NCBI GenBank assembly: GCA_934153655.1
Contig: CAKPFH010000002.1
Coordinates: 1-61,972 of the forward strand
Reading direction: 5' to 3'
DNA from: an uncultured Bacilli bacterium
GTDB lineage: Bacteria > Bacillota_I > Bacilli_A > RF39 > UBA660
Length of the DNA: 61,972 nucleotides
The translations under genes were made by a program, and so were the position numbers. Under the pieces are notes generated by a model. It saw nothing but the letters and a program-made list of their open reading frames with translations, searched no databases and was not told where the DNA came from. Position 1 is the stretch's first letter. Each line of letters begins with the position of its first letter. Shown here one piece after another: positions 34,765 through 52,359 of this stretch.

Positions 34765-36159
34765 GTGAAAAAAGTATTTTTAAAGTTAATAATACCATGT
34801 TTCTTATTTTTATCATTAATTATTAATGTAAAAGCTTATAGTTTGCATTGTGAATATCAAATAGGTGATAATGAAAATATTAAAATTACAATCGATTATG
34901 ATAAAGATAAAGAAGAATATAAAACTCCTAATGTAGTTCTTAAACTTCCTCATCCGTCTCTTAGTAGTTATTATCACGTTTTTTCTTATATCCCAGTTGA
35001 AGCTTTACAAAAGTCAGAAACTGATTCAACTCTTGCTTGTCCTAATCTTTTTCTAGAACAAAAACAACAAAAGGCATATATTCATAATTATGTTTATTAT
35101 CGTAAAGCTGATTGTACTCAAACTGGTAGTTGTTCAGAAATAAAAATATTAACTGATAAATCAAAAGTTGATAATACAGGCAAGCCAAATAATGGTGGCA
35201 CAACAGATAATCCTAGTAATCCAGGTGATTCAACTCAAGATCCAAATACTTCAACTACAGACTCAGGATTACCTTGTTATTGTGAAAGTCAAACTAAAAG
35301 CAGTAAAAATATTAAATTTACTATAAAAAAAGATAATAATGGTAATTTTACTTATATTGATGTAAAACAAAATAATATAATAACATCAACTAATAATTAT
35401 CGATTTATTTATAATATAACTGATTATAAGTGTCCAGATTATTTAGATATAAAATTTCTTCATAATACTGGTGTATTTCAAGATTATTCAGTGACACCTG
35501 GGACTTCTTCTTCAGAATATAAATGTAATAAGTATGATTATACTTATCGTAATGATAATGACTTTCAATTAAATTATTATTTACTTCCAAGTGGTACAAC
35601 AACTTGTAGAATTACTAAAGATTCAAATAATAATTATGTTGCTAATATAAAAGATCAAAAAATTGAAATAACTAACATGTCAACTTTTAATCCTAATAGT
35701 CCTCCAAGTTACATTATAAAAGATGGGGTAACCGGTAAGTATTCATTTTCAGAAAAAGCTGATAGTAGTGGTAATAATAAAATTTATACTCTTGCTTCTA
35801 AAATTAGCGAGTTTGGAAATCTTTCAATAGGTGAAATTGAAAAAACTTGCGAAGCTATCTTCGGAGAAGATTTCATTTATTTTGTAAAAAAGAATGTTTT
35901 AAATGTTATTTATATAGTTGTTCCAATTCTTTTATTAGTTTTAACAACAATTGATTTTGTTAAAGTAGTTATGAGTAATGAAAAAGATGGAGTTAAAAAA
36001 GCCGGAACTAGATTTGGTAAAAGAGTAATAGCTGCTATTTTAATTTATTTAACTCCAACAATTCTTATATTTTTAGCCGAAATCATGGGTGCTAGTCCTA
36101 TAAGTGATTGTGCTAAATATATTCAAAAAATAAGTAAAGAGGAGAATAGTAGCGAATGA
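34765..36159 (+). CDS. Secreted Cys-rich two-module protein with conserved C-terminal two-helix membrane hairpin (paralogue A)
   Basis: GTG start 13 nt after AAGGAG. Signal peptide ending VKA. Two C-x-Y...I-K-x-T-I...C-P modules separated by an N/P/T/S-rich linker. C-terminal 120 aa are shared with the next gene. Confidence 0.6.
   Translation: MKKVFLKLIIPCFLFLSLIINVKAYSLHCEYQIGDNENIKITIDYDKDKEEYKTPNVVLKLPHPSLSSYYHVFSYIPVEALQKSETDSTLACPNLFLEQKQQKAYIHNYVYYRKADCTQTGSCSEIKILTDKSKVDNTGKPNNGGTTDNPSNPGDSTQDPNTSTTDSGLPCYCESQTKSSKNIKFTIKKDNNGNFTYIDVKQNNIITSTNNYRFIYNITDYKCPDYLDIKFLHNTGVFQDYSVTPGTSSSEYKCNKYDYTYRNDNDFQLNYYLLPSGTTTCRITKDSNNNYVANIKDQKIEITNMSTFNPNSPPSYIIKDGVTGKYSFSEKADSSGNNKIYTLASKISEFGNLSIGEIEKTCEAIFGEDFIYFVKKNVLNVIYIVVPILLLVLTTIDFVKVVMSNEKDGVKKAGTRFGKRVIAAILIYLTPTILIFLAEIMGASPISDCAKYIQKISKEENSSE
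35785..36144 (+). repeat. Conserved 3' block of paralogue A (copy 1 of a dispersed direct repeat)
   Basis: Encodes YTLASKISEFG...KYIQKISKEE. By hand count, 102 of 120 residues are identical to the block at 37407-37766. Confidence 0.75.
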
Positions 36160-37790
36160 AAAAATTAAATTTAAAAATATTATTGATACTGGCTATATTT
36201 TTGATGTTTAATATAAGTCCTAAGGCTTATGTTGCCCAATCTTATGAATGTTACTATAAAAGTTCTAGTGGACAAAAAATAAAAGTTACTATTGGACAAG
36301 GATGGGATCCAAATTTATTATATCCTAATCCTAGTTCAAATTCTGATGCTTTTAAATTTTATCCAGCAAATAGTGTTTCTCCTATTAATAATAGGACTTG
36401 TGGGTTCTTGTGGTTTAATTGTAAAGATCATTATATTTTTCAGCAGGGGTCATTTGAATATGCTGTTGGTCAGGCTTGTCCAGTTACAATGACTAATTAT
36501 TATTTAAAAAAAGAGGCAGAAAATGAATATTTTATAGATGGCAATAATGGTTATAAAATATATTCTAGTGATGCAACTCGAGGTAAAACGTATAGTACTT
36601 ACTTTAGTACTAAAAATAATGCTGATGAGACTTTTCCATCACTTATAATTGAATTTTCTAAAAAGGGTAGATTATTACAGAAAATAGAAGGCTTAGATAC
36701 TATGGAAATTGATGCCGTTATAACTCCATATGATAGTGATGTAACTCTTTTAGATAAGATTAAAAATAATGATAAATTTACAAGTACAACTTTTTACTAT
36801 GATGAACAAATTCAAGAAGAAGAGAAACCAACTATTGATGATCAAGGTTTCATGGATTGTACTTATCGAAATCGAAAAAAAGAAAATATATCTTTTCATT
36901 TAAAAAAAGGAAATATTTTATCAGATGATAAAGAAACGGTTACAGTAGGTGATAATACTAAGGAAGTTTATAGATCGATAATTGCTGGTACTACAGTTAT
37001 TTCGACTTGTCCAGATAATATAATTTATCCATCTAATGGAAATAAGGAAGCTTATAGTATTTTAAGTTGTCCATCTGGGGAATCTGAATTTGACTCAATT
37101 TGTTATTATAGAAGTGATTTACCAATTGAATATGATAATAACGAGAAAAAAAGAATTAGATATTTAAATACTAGAACTTCAGCTGGAGAAATTGATGTAT
37201 ATCTTTTAACAGCTCCTAATTCAAATGGTAAAATGGTAATTGCTAAGCAAAATGAAACAGAACTTAATTTTGAATGTGATGAAAACAATTATTTAACAGG
37301 AACAAATTATCCTACTTATCTTATAAAGGTAGGTGAAGGATCATCAGCCAAAATAACAGCAACTTATAAATTAGATAGCAGTGATAAAAGTGTTGCTAAA
37401 AAAGTTTATATGTTAGCTTCTAAAATCGGTGAATTTGGTGATTTGAAATTAGGCGAGATTGAAAAAACTTGTGAAGTTATCTATGGTGATGATTTTATTC
37501 ATTTTTTGAAAAAGAATGTTTTAAATGTTATTTATATAATTGTTCCAATTATTTTATTAGTTTTAACAACAGTTGATTTTGTTAAGGTGGTTATGAGTAA
37601 TGAAAAAGATGGAGTTAAAAAAGCAGGAAGTAGATTTGGTAAAAGAGTAGTAGCTGCTATTTTAATTTATTTAACTCCAACTATACTTATTTTCTTAGCA
37701 GAGATATTAGGGGCAAGTACAATAAGTGATTGTGCTAAATATATTCAAAAAATAGCTAAAGAAGAACAAACTAATCAAAGCGATAGTTGA
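36156..37790 (+). CDS. Secreted Cys-rich two-module protein with conserved C-terminal two-helix membrane hairpin (paralogue B)
   Basis: ATGA overlap with paralogue A. RBS GAGGAG. Signal peptide ending PKA. Same module logic and the same C-terminal hairpin. Confidence 0.6.
   Translation: MKKLNLKILLILAIFLMFNISPKAYVAQSYECYYKSSSGQKIKVTIGQGWDPNLLYPNPSSNSDAFKFYPANSVSPINNRTCGFLWFNCKDHYIFQQGSFEYAVGQACPVTMTNYYLKKEAENEYFIDGNNGYKIYSSDATRGKTYSTYFSTKNNADETFPSLIIEFSKKGRLLQKIEGLDTMEIDAVITPYDSDVTLLDKIKNNDKFTSTTFYYDEQIQEEEKPTIDDQGFMDCTYRNRKKENISFHLKKGNILSDDKETVTVGDNTKEVYRSIIAGTTVISTCPDNIIYPSNGNKEAYSILSCPSGESEFDSICYYRSDLPIEYDNNEKKRIRYLNTRTSAGEIDVYLLTAPNSNGKMVIAKQNETELNFECDENNYLTGTNYPTYLIKVGEGSSAKITATYKLDSSDKSVAKKVYMLASKIGEFGDLKLGEIEKTCEVIYGDDFIHFLKKNVLNVIYIIVPIILLVLTTVDFVKVVMSNEKDGVKKAGSRFGKRVVAAILIYLTPTILIFLAEILGASTISDCAKYIQKIAKEEQTNQSDS
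37407..37766 (+). repeat. Conserved 3' block of paralogue B (copy 2)
   Basis: Encodes YMLASKIGEFG...KYIQKIAKEE. Long runs of identical nucleotides are shared with 35785-36144. Confidence 0.75.
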
Positions 37791-43332: not shown

Positions 43333-43433
43333 ATTTCCTCCTATTATTAATATATCAAATAATAGTAATTATTTCAATTATTAATTTGAAAATTTATTAT
43401 ACTTATGATATTATAAAGTCAAAGGGAGATGTT

Positions 43434-44966
43434 ATGAAATATTTAGTTAAATTAAGCTTTGATAAAGTAGATGAATTTGATGAAATTGATGATGAATTTG
43501 ATGAGAATGATGAAGAATTTGATGAATTTGATGTTGGAAGAGGATTTGTTTTCTTTGAAAATGAAGGAAATGGCTTGTTAGCTATTAATTTATCAGTTGA
43601 TCCTAGTAAAAAATTAACAAATGACTATATAAGAAGTTTATTAAAAAATTATTTATCAGGATATGATTTTATGATAAATGAAACAGCTGATGTTAAAATA
43701 GCCAAAGCTCTTTTAAAAAAGAAAATTAATATTTTAGATAATACTCTTGGTTTTGTTTTACCAAATGATTTAAAAACAAGTGATTATCTTAAAAATCTTG
43801 ATATTCAAGATAAAAAATTATATTTAGATGGTATATATGATACTACTCAAAGTGATTTAGATTTAGTTTTAAATGTAGTAGGAGATAAAAAAGATATTTA
43901 TTTAAAAGTAGAAGGTAATAATGATTATGTAACAGTTTTAGAATATGAAAATACTGTTAAAGCTATAAATGAAATAGTAGAAAAAATTAAAAAATATAAT
44001 CTAAGTCCTTTTGAACAAATCATGTATGCATATGATTTAGTAAGAGAAAGAATTTATAAATTTGAAGATAAAGGTGATTCTCCAACTAAGTCTAGAGATT
44101 TAACTTCAGTTTTAAGTGGAGATAGAATAGTATGTGTTGGTTATGCTGTTTTATTAAAAGCTATTCTTAGAAATTTTTCTATTAATGCTGAAAACTATAT
44201 AATTGAACATAAAACTAAACCTTTAGCTCATCAAAGAAGTATGATTTATGTTTTAGATCCTAAATATAATATTGATGGAGTTTTCTTTTTTGATCCAACA
44301 TTTGATAGTAGAAAAAAAGAAAATGATAATAGTTATTTAAATAATTATCGTAATTTTGCTGTTACTAAAGAAAAATCAGAAGTAGGATTAGAAGATTTTG
44401 TTTCAAGAAATTTACCTGGATTTGATAGAGATTTTATTCCTAAACTAAAAACAATTATTCTAGAAAAAGGTCTTAAAAATGTTCCAGCTGATATGATTAA
44501 TACAATTAATCGGGTAGCAATTTTTCTAGATGGAGAAGTTCTTATTAAAAGAGTAATGCTTGATACATTTAATTCTGTAAATATACCAGAGATTTTTAGA
44601 AAGAATTATACATTTGACCAAGAAAAAACTTTTGAAACTCTTGATCGTTACCAAAGATTATTCTTTGAAAGTAGTATTAGTGGACCAGATTTTTTAAGAG
44701 CTTTATATAATGTAAGAAAAGTTGAATATTATGATGATCCAAAAAAATATCCATTTGATGCAGTAGCAATTGAAAAAGCTGCAAGAGCATATCCTGAGAA
44801 TATTTATACAAGAATGTTTTATGAAATACATGGTAATCCAGATGAAAGAATAGATGAAGAAGGTTTAGCAAAAGTTTTTGAAGAAGATAAAATAGCTGAG
44901 AATATTGAACAAGTTAAAATAACTAATTTAGTAAGAGATTATTATGAAAGAAAGAAGAGTAGATAA
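43434..44966 (+). CDS. Transglutaminase-like (papain-fold) domain protein with acidic DEFDE-repeat N-terminus
   Basis: ATG at 43434 behind AGGGAGA. DEFDEIDDEFDENDEEFDEFD. Candidate Cys-His-Asp: RIVCVGYAVLLKAILRNFSINAE ... AHQRSMIYV ... FFFDPTFD. Confidence 0.5.
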   Translation: MKYLVKLSFDKVDEFDEIDDEFDENDEEFDEFDVGRGFVFFENEGNGLLAINLSVDPSKKLTNDYIRSLLKNYLSGYDFMINETADVKIAKALLKKKINILDNTLGFVLPNDLKTSDYLKNLDIQDKKLYLDGIYDTTQSDLDLVLNVVGDKKDIYLKVEGNNDYVTVLEYENTVKAINEIVEKIKKYNLSPFEQIMYAYDLVRERIYKFEDKGDSPTKSRDLTSVLSGDRIVCVGYAVLLKAILRNFSINAENYIIEHKTKPLAHQRSMIYVLDPKYNIDGVFFFDPTFDSRKKENDNSYLNNYRNFAVTKEKSEVGLEDFVSRNLPGFDRDFIPKLKTIILEKGLKNVPADMINTINRVAIFLDGEVLIKRVMLDTFNSVNIPEIFRKNYTFDQEKTFETLDRYQRLFFESSISGPDFLRALYNVRKVEYYDDPKKYPFDAVAIEKAARAYPENIYTRMFYEIHGNPDERIDEEGLAKVFEEDKIAENIEQVKITNLVRDYYERKKSR

Positions 44967-46046: not shown

Positions 46047-46240
46047 GACTTCACCATTTAATTTTATGTTTAATATATAAAAAAATAAATAAAATATGTT
46101 AAATGTCTTTTAATAAATTAATAGATTTCTATTAATTTAAAAGATTGTTTATGAATTGGTCAGTCACGACCAATCAATTTAAAATAAGTTAAATAAAATA
46201 ATGATATTTTTTTAAAAATTAAAGACTTTTTATTAGAAAT

Positions 46241-47947
46241 TTGATAAAATTAACTTGTGATGATTATATGTATGAATGTTATAAAGAATATTTAACTGGG
46301 ACTTTTGTTTTTTTAGATTATATTATTAATATTGATAATCCAAATGGATATGCTAAAGAAATAATTAATAAAGAATATATAACAGGTAGTAAAGTAGCTA
46401 TTCTTGCTAATATTTTGTTATCTATTAAAGAAAGTGTCGTTGAAAAAGAAAAAGATAATGGTTTAAACTTTTTAACTAAAATATTTGATTATTTAATAAA
46501 TGATGCAACTAGTATAATTGCTACTAATAAACAAGATAATACTTATTCTTTAGATAATTATAAAGATACACCTTCTAATATATTAGCAAGAATTAGAAAT
46601 AGATTTGCTCATGGAGGATATTTAATAGATTTTAAAAATAATAAAATACTTATAAATATTGCTAAGAAAAAAGAACCAGAAGTATTTTATCAAATAGATG
46701 TAGATAAATTAACAAAATACATAAGAGAAAATGTAAAAGGTTATTTAAAAGAGAAAAAAACAAATGAATATAAAAGACATTTAATTGAATTTACTGATAA
46801 AAACAATAATAATAAACCTATAAGTTTAAAAAGTGATGCTAAAAATATTTTAAAACAAGTTAAATATCAAGAATTTATTCTTATAAGTGATAAAGAAATA
46901 AATAAAGAAGTTTTAAAAAACTTTAATAAAGTAATTGATTATTATCAAGAAACTTTAGATATTAATATTATAAATAAATTTGAAGAGGAAATAAAAAAAC
47001 AAGGTTATAAAATTATTCGAAAGACTAAGAAAATAAATAACCAAGAATTTGATAATATTTTAACTAATACTAGTTATTTAACTTATAATAGTAAAAATCT
47101 TGGTTATCATGATCAAATTAATTGTTTAGAAGAATATTTATTATATTACTTTAATGAAGATGAAGAAAAACTAAAGCAATTAATTGCTAATTTAAGTTCT
47201 TTACAAATATTAGAAGGAATTAATACTTTAAAAACAATTAATATAGAAGAAATTTCTAAAAACTTTTTAGTTCAAATTAAAAGAGATCAAGAACTAATAT
47301 TAGCAAGCATTCTTGCTATGTTTAATTCCTTATTTATTTATCCAATGGATAATATTTTTTCTAATTCAAATGAATTTACAAATAAAGAAAATACTGGTTT
47401 TCCATATGAATTATTAGATGTTAGTTTAATTAAAAATTGTAAATATCAATTAGATACTAATAATATAGCAAATTTAAAAGAACAAGAACAAGCTTTAGTA
47501 AAAAGTATTAAAAGATTAGATAATAACATTTTAAAAATTTCAAATAACTTAGACAATATTCCTAAAGAAAACCAAGATACTATTACTAAAATGAAAATTA
47601 GTTTACAAAATTATAAATTAGAATTAAAAGATTTAGTTGAAAATCTTAAGTTAATTCAAGAAGAATTGCAAGCAAAAGAAAATTATTTTTCTAATAATCA
47701 AGTTTATTTAAAAAACAAAAGTATAATAGAAGGTATTAGAAATTCTATATGTCATGGTAATATTAAAACTAAATTAAATGGTACTATGGATGAGACAATA
47801 GTAATATTTGAAGATATTTATGATGGTAAATTAACATTTAAATTAGAAATAACTTTAAATGATTTATATAAGTTTTTATATAGTAATTTCTTTATTGTAA
47901 TAGATTATTTAAAAACTTTCGAAAAAGATAAGAAAAGTGTGTTATAA
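46241..47947 (+). CDS. Tandem-HEPN protein (two RNxxxH motifs). Putative RNase of unknown system
   Basis: R119-N-R-F-A-H124 (nt 46595-46612) and R500-N-S-I-C-H505 (nt 47738-47755). K/N/E-rich helical middle region. TTG start (the alternative ATG is at 46268). No clear Shine-Dalgarno for either start. Confidence 0.6.
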   Translation: MIKLTCDDYMYECYKEYLTGTFVFLDYIINIDNPNGYAKEIINKEYITGSKVAILANILLSIKESVVEKEKDNGLNFLTKIFDYLINDATSIIATNKQDNTYSLDNYKDTPSNILARIRNRFAHGGYLIDFKNNKILINIAKKKEPEVFYQIDVDKLTKYIRENVKGYLKEKKTNEYKRHLIEFTDKNNNNKPISLKSDAKNILKQVKYQEFILISDKEINKEVLKNFNKVIDYYQETLDINIINKFEEEIKKQGYKIIRKTKKINNQEFDNILTNTSYLTYNSKNLGYHDQINCLEEYLLYYFNEDEEKLKQLIANLSSLQILEGINTLKTINIEEISKNFLVQIKRDQELILASILAMFNSLFIYPMDNIFSNSNEFTNKENTGFPYELLDVSLIKNCKYQLDTNNIANLKEQEQALVKSIKRLDNNILKISNNLDNIPKENQDTITKMKISLQNYKLELKDLVENLKLIQEELQAKENYFSNNQVYLKNKSIIEGIRNSICHGNIKTKLNGTMDETIVIFEDIYDGKLTFKLEITLNDLYKFLYSNFFIVIDYLKTFEKDKKSVL

Positions 47948-47970
47948 TATTAAGTTAATGAGGGGGATTT

Positions 47971-48207
47971 ATGAATGGTATTAACAATTATTTTGAAAGA
48001 ATAAAAGATCCTACTAAAGAAATAATCGATTTTAGTTATTTATATATGCATCCTGAAGCAATTTATTTAGTATGGGAGAAATATTCTTTTGATTTAACTT
48101 TTAAAATGGAAGTAAATAGAAAAATGTATTTAGATAATCTATTTAAAAAAAGATTTAATGAGGTATTTAAAAATTTTTTACCTAAAGATAAAGTTAAAAA
48201 AAGATAA
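47971..48207 (+). CDS. Hypothetical 78-aa protein
   Basis: Strong RBS GAGGGGGA. Lies 23 nt downstream of the HEPN gene and 11 nt upstream of the trmH-like gene. No motif recognised. Confidence 0.45.
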   Translation: MNGINNYFERIKDPTKEIIDFSYLYMHPEAIYLVWEKYSFDLTFKMEVNRKMYLDNLFKKRFNEVFKNFLPKDKVKKR

Positions 48208-51242: not shown

Positions 51243-51316
51243 TGGCAGGGAATGAGAGAATCGAACTCCCATCAAAGGTTTTGGAGACCCCTATTTTACC
51301 ATTAAACTAATTCCCT
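51243..51316 (-). tRNA. tRNA-Trp (anticodon CCA), CCA encoded
   Basis: The reverse complement folds by hand. Acceptor AGGGAAT/ATTCCCT, anticodon stem GGGGT/ACCTT with loop CTCCAAA, T-arm GGGAG TTCGATT CTCTC, discriminator G, then CCA. Confidence 0.85.
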
Positions 51317-51402
51317 AAAACAAATTTATTTTAACATTATTTTTTCTACTTGTCAATTAATATTTTTTTTTATATAATATTACTTGTTTAGGAGTGGTGT
51401 AT

Positions 51403-52359
51403 ATGTCAAAAAAAGTAAAAGTAACTAATAATTTACAAAAAACTTTAAATTCTAATAGTAAAAATAATCAAACTAAGAAAAAAGCAACTAATAGTCAAAC
51501 AAAAACTAATAATATAGAAAAAACTCCTAATAAAACTAATAATCATTATCAAAAAATTCAAAAACAAGTAATTGATAATGCTAAATTAGCTAAAACAAAA
51601 AAAGTTGCAAAAGTAAAAAAAGAAAATGATAAAAAAGAACTTGCTAAAAAAATAGATGATAAAAAAACAAATAATAAAAAACTATTAGATAAGAATAAAG
51701 TTAAAAAAGTAGAAAAAATTAAAAAAATTAAAACTAAGAAAAATATTCTTTTAAAAATTAAAATTGTTTTATTAAAGATAGGTAAAATTATTAAAAATAT
51801 TCTATTAAAAATAGGTAGAATTATTAAGAATATTTTTAGAAAAATTATAAGTTTTTTAGTAACAATTAGTAAAAAAATATATTTTGGTATATTTAAATTA
51901 ATAAAAATAATTAAAGTTAAAATTAGTAGTTTGTTTAATACTAAAAAGAAAGTTAAATTAAAAAACGAAAAAGTAAAAGAAATTAAAGTAGAAAATGAGA
52001 ATAAAACTTTAAAAAATGAAAAGACTAAATATGAAATTGTAAGTTCTAGTTATCCAATTATTAAAAGTTTAACTGGAAGAATATTACCTTTAAGTTTAAC
52101 TAAATGGGATAAGAAAAGACGAAAGAATATTTATTTAAAAGAAGCTCTTTTATTTTCTATAACTTTAACTTTGATTGATGTTTATTGTTTTTATAATTTA
52201 TCATTTATGAATATTTTAAATATATTTGATAATAGTATTTGGAATTTAATTGCAACAATAACTTTAACTTTAGTAATTTTATTAGTATTAAGTTATTTAA
52301 TTGATTATCTTATTACAGAAAGTATAGTAAGAAAGTATCAAAAGAGATTAAAGAAATAA
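51403..52359 (+). CDS. Lysine-rich protein with tandem amphipathic repeats and two C-terminal TM helices, unknown function
   Basis: ATG at 51403 behind AGGAGTGG. K/N/T-rich N-terminal half. LLKIGKIIKNI / LLKIGRIIKNI tandem repeat. C-terminal hydrophobic helices. Confidence 0.45.
   Translation: MSKKVKVTNNLQKTLNSNSKNNQTKKKATNSQTKTNNIEKTPNKTNNHYQKIQKQVIDNAKLAKTKKVAKVKKENDKKELAKKIDDKKTNNKKLLDKNKVKKVEKIKKIKTKKNILLKIKIVLLKIGKIIKNILLKIGRIIKNIFRKIISFLVTISKKIYFGIFKLIKIIKVKISSLFNTKKKVKLKNEKVKEIKVENENKTLKNEKTKYEIVSSSYPIIKSLTGRILPLSLTKWDKKRRKNIYLKEALLFSITLTLIDVYCFYNLSFMNILNIFDNSIWNLIATITLTLVILLVLSYLIDYLITESIVRKYQKRLKK

Follow-up and report, generated by a model that had tools for sequence, protein, structure and literature searches.

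A gene at positions 46268-47947 (plus strand) of a 61,972-nucleotide (nt) stretch of DNA from an uncultured Bacilli bacterium (contig CAKPFH010000002.1, positions 1 to 61,972, hereafter the window) was found to encode a protein of 559 amino acids (aa) that carries the RNxxxH motif of HEPN-type nucleases twice, once near each end. Alignment of their profiles showed the two motif-bearing modules to be duplicates of each other, and the gene was shown to be accessory and hypervariable, with alleles that are swapped between near-identical genomes. The reading preferred here, to which a probability of about 0.5 is assigned, is that of a stand-alone cytoplasmic two-HEPN protein of nuclease type, used in defence or as a toxin, with a composite active site and the sensing of phage both counted within that estimate.

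A first-pass annotation of the window, made from the sequence alone, had described the protein as an orphan; instead, it belongs to a family of at least 366 clusters at 50% identity. A word-indexed search recovered 39 homologues, ranging from 100% down to 27% identity, and an exhaustive profile search gave 366 representatives (of 50% identity clusters) at E≤1e-3, 183 of them below 1e-30, nearly all of full length (540-600 aa, about 555 aa). A scan of one genome per GTDB species with a 7-sequence alignment provided 40 species loci, nearly all from metagenome-assembled genomes (MAGs) of uncultured gut 'Bacilli', 'Tenericutes' or Bacillota; a neighbouring protein carries the NCBI label Erysipelotrichaceae. 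Every source consulted for a family name gave just 'hypothetical protein', literature searches returned no paper describing the two-HEPN family, and neither a PADLOC model nor a PHROG was found for it.

Two HEPN-type modules in one polypeptide

The extent of the coding sequence was taken from the list of open reading frames (ORFs), gene callers, and alignment of the N-terminus with those encoded at two related loci, L011 and L012 (L-numbers denote loci of relatives and P-numbers proteins of the family, P0001 being the 559-aa window protein). TTG 46241 and a weak ATG had both been offered as possible starts. The ATG, at 46268, is considered the real one, because gene callers use it for P0001 and alignment places the N-termini of homologues at the same point (MYECYKEY, MDECYKEY and MTKEECLKEY), while the TTG is nine codons too early. 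The start had also been said to lack a Shine-Dalgarno sequence, but a partial one (GTGAT) is present 6 nt upstream, and relatives have GGTGAT. With residues counted from ATG 46268, the motifs are R110..H115 and R491..H496, and the protein is laid out as follows.

46268-47947, plus strand: coding sequence of the two-HEPN protein, 559 aa plus stop
46268-46762, plus strand: N-terminal HEPN-like domain, aa 1-165, from secondary structure in two AlphaFold2 (AF2) models and from hhalign
46427-46432, plus strand: K54-E55 at the end of helix 2, candidate for the conserved acidic residue of HEPN domains
46595-46612, plus strand: N-proximal Rx4H motif R110-N-R-F-A-H115, then G116, from sequence, at the C-terminal end of helix 102-115
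46763-47287, plus strand: alpha/beta middle region, aa 166-340, from AF2, poorly conserved
47288-47452, plus strand: conserved island, aa 341-395 (FNSLFxYPxD ... LDYSxLD), from conservation among members
47459-47695, plus strand: long antiparallel helical hairpin, aa 398-476, from AF2 (helices 398-430 and 436-476), the least conserved part
47696-47944, plus strand: C-terminal HEPN module, aa 477-559, from hhalign and AF2
47738-47755, plus strand: C-terminal Rx4H motif R491-N-S-I-C-H496, then G497, from sequence

Both motifs were confirmed at the positions claimed for them by reading the DNA directly, the codons AGA AAT AGA TTT GCT CAT GGA at 46595-46615 specifying R-N-R-F-A-H-G, and AGA AAT TCT ATA TGT CAT GGT at 47738-47758 specifying R-N-S-I-C-H-G. 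The form R-N-x3-H, with a polar asparagine directly after the arginine, is the canonical one and is present in both copies. The whole protein contains only 9 arginines and 4 histidines, giving an expected RNxxxH count of 0.008; at least two such motifs arose in 3 of 200,000 shuffles of the protein, and the motif is absent from every other window ORF of at least 150 aa. Two motifs in this protein are far beyond chance.

The regions around the motifs were aligned with each other by hhalign at 96.8% (E 2e-10, 62 columns), with control alignments against the middle region below 1%. The earlier suggestion of duplicated copies was borne out in this respect, and both modules are strongly constrained. 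Their closest family is pEK499_p136 (PF18736), whose prototype, WP_000528932, is a 'HEPN family nuclease' of the E. coli plasmid pEK499 (Anantharaman 2013). When compared with an alignment of 53 sequences built from this prototype, the C-terminal module matched at 93% (E 3e-7) over 58 columns that cover helix 3, the beta meander and the start of helix 4, and the profile of the whole protein matched at 88%. The N-terminal domain gave a weak alignment (22%, E 1e-3, 89 columns) in which K54-E55 fell on the conserved K-E of the family. A precomputed Pfam table lists a PF18736.8 match (E≤1e-5) on the window protein and on many homologues. Sub-threshold Pfam matches to PF18737 were seen in a few of 87 members, and the models of the PADLOC defence library that were matched, again below threshold, by more than one of the 87 were all HEPN models (RTasHEPN in 8, CARF_HEPN in 3 and 2).

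The position of the motifs within the predicted structure is also that of a HEPN domain. The AF2 model, built from a 17-sequence alignment, had a pLDDT (predicted local distance difference test score) of 87.5 and a pTM (predicted template modelling score) of 0.83, and an independent AF2 model of residues 1-166 gave the same secondary structure as the full-length one. The N-terminal domain (aa 1-165) is predicted to consist of helices 2-20 and 35-52, a beta-rich insert, helix 102-115 with the motif, three short strands, and helix 145-161, and the C-terminal module of helix 478-495, which ends before H496, three strands, and helix 530-558. The hairpin and helix that had been read from the sequence behind each motif thus appear in the model as three strands followed by a helix. 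In HEPN domains, the motif closes helix 3 and precedes the loop that leads on to the following helix; a conserved acid lies in helix 2 near the motif; and the inserts between helices 2 and 3 vary, helical hairpins among them (Anantharaman 2013, PMC3710099). At the level of secondary structure the models match this description, as both motifs end a helix, after which come a non-helical segment and a long helix, and E55 is placed at the end of helix 35-52/54-57.

Between the modules, the first-pass annotation had seen about 370 aa of helical or coiled-coil linker. This holds for the hairpin at 398-476, for which PDB matches were to coiled coils only, but residues 166-395 form an alpha/beta region in the AF2 model. 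Its first part (aa 166-340) had no match in Pfam, PDB or BFVD and is proposed to be a sensor or regulatory part. The island that follows (aa 341-395), in which F352 and Y358 are conserved and D361 is D or E in 121 of 126 members, possibly represents helix 2 and the acid (D361) of the C-terminal HEPN domain. With the hairpin deleted, residues 280-366 were put to hhalign against pEK499_p136 and against the N-terminal domain, but the alignment did not extend into this stretch, so that helices 1 and 2 are inferred for it.

Conservation was examined across 126 diverse members, with a mean column identity of 23% and identities down to about 20%, whereas the motif columns are 90-99% conserved. In the first motif, R is kept in 122, N in 113, H in 123 and the following G in 121; the corresponding counts for the second are 125, 117, 124 and 119, with F514 and F524 also conserved. 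Both arginines and both histidines are intact in 119 of the 126. Four conserved islands stand out, namely K54-E55 (K in 120, E or D in 124), the first motif, residues 341-395 and the second motif. The Rx4H motifs and the helix-2 K-E were shown to be the most constrained positions of a fast-evolving family. Two members that are 24% identical to each other, P0087 and P0145, each lack both motif histidines (RDNLAY and RNSIYN in P0087; RDNFVK and KNSIVE in P0145), and one other member of the set lacks a histidine. The hypergeometric probability of this double loss is ~4e-4 if the events are treated as independent. Since two unrelated members have each lost the pair of histidines, the sequences suggest that the two motifs function together; P0087 and P0145 may be inactivated derivatives with another role.

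It is considered probable, from sequence and from the predicted secondary-structure position of the motifs, that the modules are HEPN-type, with fold and activity both predicted. Direct scans of the window protein with Pfam, PADLOC, NCBIfam and PHROGs gave nothing significant, and phmmer and profile searches of PDB sequences returned coiled coils (keratin, Rad50) or noise only. FlgM was matched by 21 of the 87 members over 18-22 residues around each motif ('I..AI.HG.Y.ID'), far below the cut-off, and was rejected as a short-motif similarity. The Pfam family MauJ (PF17419, methylamine utilisation protein MauJ) was matched below threshold over the C-terminal module in 8 of 87 members (best E 3.3e-4).

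Several features are shared with pEK499_p136: a helix ending in (I/M)RNS(I/V)AH, a short beta meander (I.V ... I.F.D ...), a long C-terminal helix and, in the N-terminal domain, the conserved K-E at the end of helix 2; both families are predicted nucleases of conflict systems. They differ in that pEK499_p136 proteins are stand-alone, of about 160 aa (136-200), with one HEPN domain and a need for a partner subunit, whereas here two modules are found within 559 aa, and in the residues after the motif, which are HF in pEK499_p136 and HG in the two-HEPN family. The former occurs mainly in Proteobacteria and Bacteroidota, often near restriction-modification, Pgl, ART or Macro genes; the latter only in gut Bacilli MAGs and without conserved neighbours. 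An intramolecular HEPN pair as a route to an active site without dimerising is also found in the MJ1666-type Csx1 proteins, described as 'a dyad of HEPN domains' (Anantharaman 2013, PMC3710099), but Csx1 is a fusion with a CARF/Rossmann sensor that acts in type III CRISPR signalling, and the two-HEPN loci have neither CARF nor CRISPR (weak CARF_HEPN matches in 5 of 87). Judged from sequence, the two-HEPN family would be a new architecture among HEPN conflict nucleases.

Allele replacement and genomic setting

The clearest view of how the gene evolves came from L140-L149, contigs that encode a nearly identical copy of the 78-aa ORF downstream of the gene. Window and L140 are 94.0% identical in nucleotide sequence across the FtsW flank and 97.3% over 2.5 kb downstream, yet the HEPN gene between them (559 aa in both) is 63.4% identical in nucleotide and 41% in protein sequence. 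Compared in 100-nt steps, identity was 90-97% up to 46066, 22-69% from 46067 to 47830, 79% from 47831 to 47930, and 91-99% thereafter, which delimits the following feature.

46100-47880, plus strand: hypervariable cassette, window versus L140 in 100-nt steps, with boundaries good to about 100 nt

In L011 the pattern is reversed, with flanks that are farther from the window (about 92%) and an allele that is closer (84% nt, 74% aa), so that the tree of the gene disagrees with that of its flanks. Relative to housekeeping neighbours the protein diverges quickly: 74% identity to the window protein against 89-100% in L011, and 45% against 58-94% in L012. The L140 allele class showed a ratio of nonsynonymous to synonymous substitution (dN/dS) of 0.51, against 0.04-0.31 for the flanking genes, with dS below that of the flanks, and this fits an allele that has recently spread and is under relaxed or diversifying selection. 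In other lineages, tandem paralogues of 30-36% identity are present (L022, L034 and L035), and one genome, L042, has a disrupted second copy. Such evolution is typical of genes of genetic conflict (toxins and defence), not of housekeeping enzymes.

The gene order of an FtsW/RodA-type gene (minus strand), the HEPN gene, a SpoU/TrmH-type methylase gene, RimM and TrmD is common to the window, L011 and L012. That the gene interrupts a housekeeping run, as first stated, agrees with locus L064, an empty site at which FtsW (81% aa) directly adjoins SpoU (64%), the two being 133 nt apart. L064 is one of 80 loci obtained when metagenomes were scanned with SpoU, none of which (0/80) had a HEPN gene in the fetched flank of up to 6 kb. 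Other lineages have various genes beside it, among them MutS, HrcA-GrpE-DnaK, a P-type ATPase with a U32 peptidase, an amidoligase, response regulators and an AAA/DUF4143 ATPase, and no neighbouring gene family recurs across lineages in the 40 species loci. Spacers around family genes are usually <100 nt, often 0-12 nt or overlapping. At L019 and L021, a gene for an AAA_14/DUF4143/NERD-type ATPase (2587-3903 in L019 coordinates) lies between the P-type ATPase and HEPN genes but is not found in L017, L018 or L023; this lineage is therefore variable immediately upstream of the HEPN gene as well.

Flanking elements and nearby variable sites

Two elements adjoin the gene.

46047-46267, plus strand: leader and divergent promoter region shared with the FtsW/RodA-type gene, from comparison with L011, L012 and L064
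47971-48207, plus strand: 78-aa ORF with a strong ribosome-binding site, 23 nt downstream of the HEPN gene; adjacent, not a conserved partner

The leader of the window is 221 nt long, of which about 140 nt are specific to the window's species. It contains a GC-containing hairpin, TTGGTC-agtcac-GACCAA (TTGGTCagtcacGACCAA), at 46156-46173 that is unique in the window, and its fold has a modest z-score of -2.8. The spacers of L011 and L012 are 76 and 65 nt, with no hairpin but with a TATAAT/TATACT box and a GGTGAT Shine-Dalgarno sequence, and in L140-L149 the FtsW-HEPN spacer ranges from 110 to 265 nt. As spacer length and hairpin differ among close relatives, the leader is a variable spacer and not an element of the family. 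Rfam gave no match in the leader and only three tRNAs in the whole window, and no CRISPR-like array was found in the 62 kb. A conserved noncoding RNA (ncRNA) or array was rejected on these grounds (no Rfam match, no repeats, short spacers, hairpin missing in close relatives). A second palindrome, with a perfect 7-bp stem and the look of a terminator (TAGCAAGcattCTTGCTA), lies within the coding sequence at 47301-47318 (codons for ASILAM) and is probably a chance match.

The 78-aa ORF had been regarded as a possible part of the module, which did not hold up. All of its homologues are at least 77% identical and it is restricted to the genus; it is absent from L012, where the HEPN gene is kept, and elsewhere. 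Where the HEPN allele drops to 41% identity, the ORF remains 87-100% identical, and the breakpoint is upstream of it. Being genus-restricted, absent in L012 and outside the variable cassette, it is neither a cognate antitoxin nor a conserved partner, and a type II toxin-antitoxin (TA) system with this ORF as antitoxin was rejected, given its absence in L012 and the lack of co-variation with the allele. PADLOC found no match in the HEPN protein, the 78-aa ORF or a 526-aa ORF farther upstream.

That 526-aa ORF (43386-44966, plus strand), which lies beyond the FtsW-type gene, also evolves fast, with 57% identity in L011 compared with 93-96% for its neighbours. It is variably present, too: L012, L141 and L144 lack it, and in them MraY and a gene of 141-146 aa adjoin FtsW. 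It has an acidic tandem repeat of DEFDE type (43458-43533) and a weak transglutaminase-core match (E 0.055). Downstream of SecG, a tRNA gene on the minus strand (51246-51316) is followed by a gene that varies (window 51246-52359): a K-rich 321-aa protein in the window, AbiEii-family and helix-turn-helix genes in L001 (15230-16183), a PpiC-type rotamase in L140 (from 7275) and a Fic gene in L144 (from 7261). This SecG/tRNA spot looks like a second variable site about 3 kb from the HEPN gene. At 34765-36159 and 36156-37790, two ORFs of 464 and 544 aa both match one 547-aa protein of L011, which has no Pfam family, at only 40-46% identity over about 150 residues, and stand beside a ThrRS gene that is 98% identical; 34765-37790 may be another fast-diverging locus, possibly duplicated.

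Proposed function and rival explanations

Under the preferred reading, the N- and C-terminal modules would associate as subunits do in a HEPN dimer, so that a single chain would contain one composite RNase site. Only the joint loss of both histidines in P0087 and P0145 speaks for such a site. The variable alpha/beta body and the helical hairpin would keep this site inactive until a trigger, most likely a phage component, is sensed; the activated enzyme would then cleave cellular or phage RNA, and growth or infection would stop, as in abortive infection. The allele replacement would result from recombination among relatives and from diversifying selection that acts on the sensing surface. The protein seems to need neither a guide RNA nor an antitoxin gene or partner enzyme. 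The first-pass annotation had proposed a self-contained RNA-targeting toxin or defence module, and allele replacement, fast evolution, paralogues and a pseudogene all fit this, with RNase activity and a defence role being inferred. A more specific form of the idea is offered tentatively, with the odds somewhat against it: a compact (~560 aa) two-HEPN RNase, independent of CRISPR, that would be immune sensor and effector in one protein of gut Bacilli, with a hypervariable body and helical hairpin that would recognise phage factors and with whole alleles exchanged between strains like restriction specificity genes. A compact two-HEPN RNase programmed by a trans-encoded RNA would be a rarer version.

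A number of points weigh against the preferred reading. Foldseek searches with the full model (PDB and BFVD) and the N-terminal domain (PDB) returned no HEPN structure and nothing at E<0.1, and the HEPN fold is for this reason unconfirmed. No solved relative was detectable by sequence for either the two-HEPN family or pEK499_p136, the latter family is itself a computational HEPN prediction, and no biochemistry of it was found in the literature. Our own scan with PF18736.6 gave no match for the window protein and sub-threshold matches in 3 of 87 relatives (best 2.9e-5, 15.5 bits against a cut-off of 26.6 bits). As to setting, homologues are surrounded by housekeeping and miscellaneous genes that differ by lineage, not by classical defence islands. 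Within the genus, the gene is fixed at its site in all genomes sampled, and it lies head-to-tail with an essential tRNA/rRNA-modification operon without an intervening terminator. No relative was found among GenBank phages, PLSDB plasmids or IMG/VR contigs, for which reason a phage, plasmid or viral origin was rejected. Finally, how an unpartnered RNase would avoid poisoning its own cell is a point that the model leaves without explanation.

The same observations lend themselves to other explanations. HEPN domains without nuclease activity exist, and the lack of a structural match, the weak Pfam support and the lack of biochemistry for the prototype family would suit a protein whose HEPN-like motifs serve in nucleotide or nucleic-acid binding, or in some other catalytic or structural role on the helical hairpin, its hypervariability reflecting another conflict or relaxed constraint. 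This is thought unlikely, as R, polar N, H and the helix-2 acid are kept twice in about 95% of members at identities down to about 20%, and as two unrelated members lost the two histidines jointly. Equally unlikely is a lineage-specific housekeeping RNase, or a factor in RNA processing or quality control, that is co-expressed with the TrmH-type methylase, RimM and TrmD and acts on rRNA or tRNA. In its favour are the co-directional arrangement with SpoU-RimM-TrmD at 11-23 nt from the neighbours with no terminator between, the presence of the gene throughout the sampled genus, the frequency of housekeeping genes such as MutS, HrcA-GrpE-DnaK and U32 peptidase as neighbours elsewhere, and the absence of the family from phages and plasmids. 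However, only one genus-level group shows the linkage to SpoU-RimM-TrmD, the 80 metagenomic SpoU loci lacked the gene within the fetched flank (up to 6 kb) and L064 is empty; alleles of 41% identity lie within flanks of 94-97%; and divergent tandem paralogues, a pseudogene and a dN/dS above that of the flanks are not expected of an enzyme with a fixed substrate.

Partnered systems are less probable again. The protein could be the toxin of a TA pair, with the 78-aa ORF as antitoxin here, other small downstream ORFs elsewhere, or an antitoxin protein encoded in trans. The strong ribosome-binding site of the 78-aa ORF, its distance of 23 nt and its constant presence beside the gene in the genus speak for this, as do unrelated small ORFs (71-152 aa) just downstream at several other loci; but no homologue of the ORF falls below 77%, L012 lacks it, its sequence does not follow changes of the allele, the 40 species loci share no recurrent downstream gene family, and at many loci a large unrelated gene begins 0-12 nt downstream. 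HepT-MntA, the type VII TA system, has a minimal nucleotidyltransferase gene alongside, whereas such a gene was found beside the HEPN gene in 0 of 40 species loci; the window likewise holds no CRISPR array, cas gene or minimal nucleotidyltransferase gene, as had been noted at first. We consider a TA pair improbable, and give marginally less credence still to an RNA-guided or RNA-antidoted effector akin to AbiF or to the ancestors of Cas13, with a small RNA from the leader or elsewhere in the genome. In Cas13, two HEPN motifs build an intramolecular composite RNase site, and the two-HEPN protein resembles it only in having an N-proximal and a C-terminal Rx4H motif in one polypeptide; the 221-nt leader with its stable hairpin and z-score of -2.8 could be taken in the same sense. 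AbiF has one HEPN domain, dimerises and is neutralised by a cis-encoded repeat ncRNA, and HEPN toxins of this type with cis ncRNA antitoxins have been called Cas13 ancestors (PMC12737573). With AbiF/AbiD (Pfam Abi_2), the two-HEPN protein shares an RNxxxH-type motif, the form of a single-protein effector and a predicted role like that of abortive infection, but it has no Abi_2 match, no conserved upstream RNA or repeats, and two modules per chain. Nor was the suggested link to Cas13 upheld: there is no array and there are no cas genes, most loci leave no room for a cis RNA gene (family spacers are mostly short or absent), and the leader is species-specific, with the hairpin missing from the 76- and 65-nt spacers of L011 and L012. 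No repeats, Rfam match or Abi_2, Cas13 or cas profile match was obtained. PADLOC, Pfam, NCBIfam and Foldseek against PDB, which should hold Cas13, revealed no significant similarity in sequence or structure (the AbiF structure 8VZ6 is cited in PMC12737573). The modules are recent duplicates of pEK499_p136 type, and a composite site, if present, would have been invented independently of Cas13.

If the preferred reading is true, the protein would represent a previously undescribed anti-phage or toxin family in poorly studied, uncultured gut Bacilli, and a layout like that of Cas13 would have arisen a second time, by duplication of a pEK499_p136-type module and without CRISPR or an RNA partner. 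An autonomous, switchable RNase of about 560 aa would then also be of interest to the engineering of RNA-targeting tools. If the protein proves ordinary, it would merely add to the predicted HEPN-domain proteins. The natural replacement of alleles, in which a 41% identical protein lies within flanks of 94-97% nucleotide identity, could allow recognition by the variable part to be mapped.

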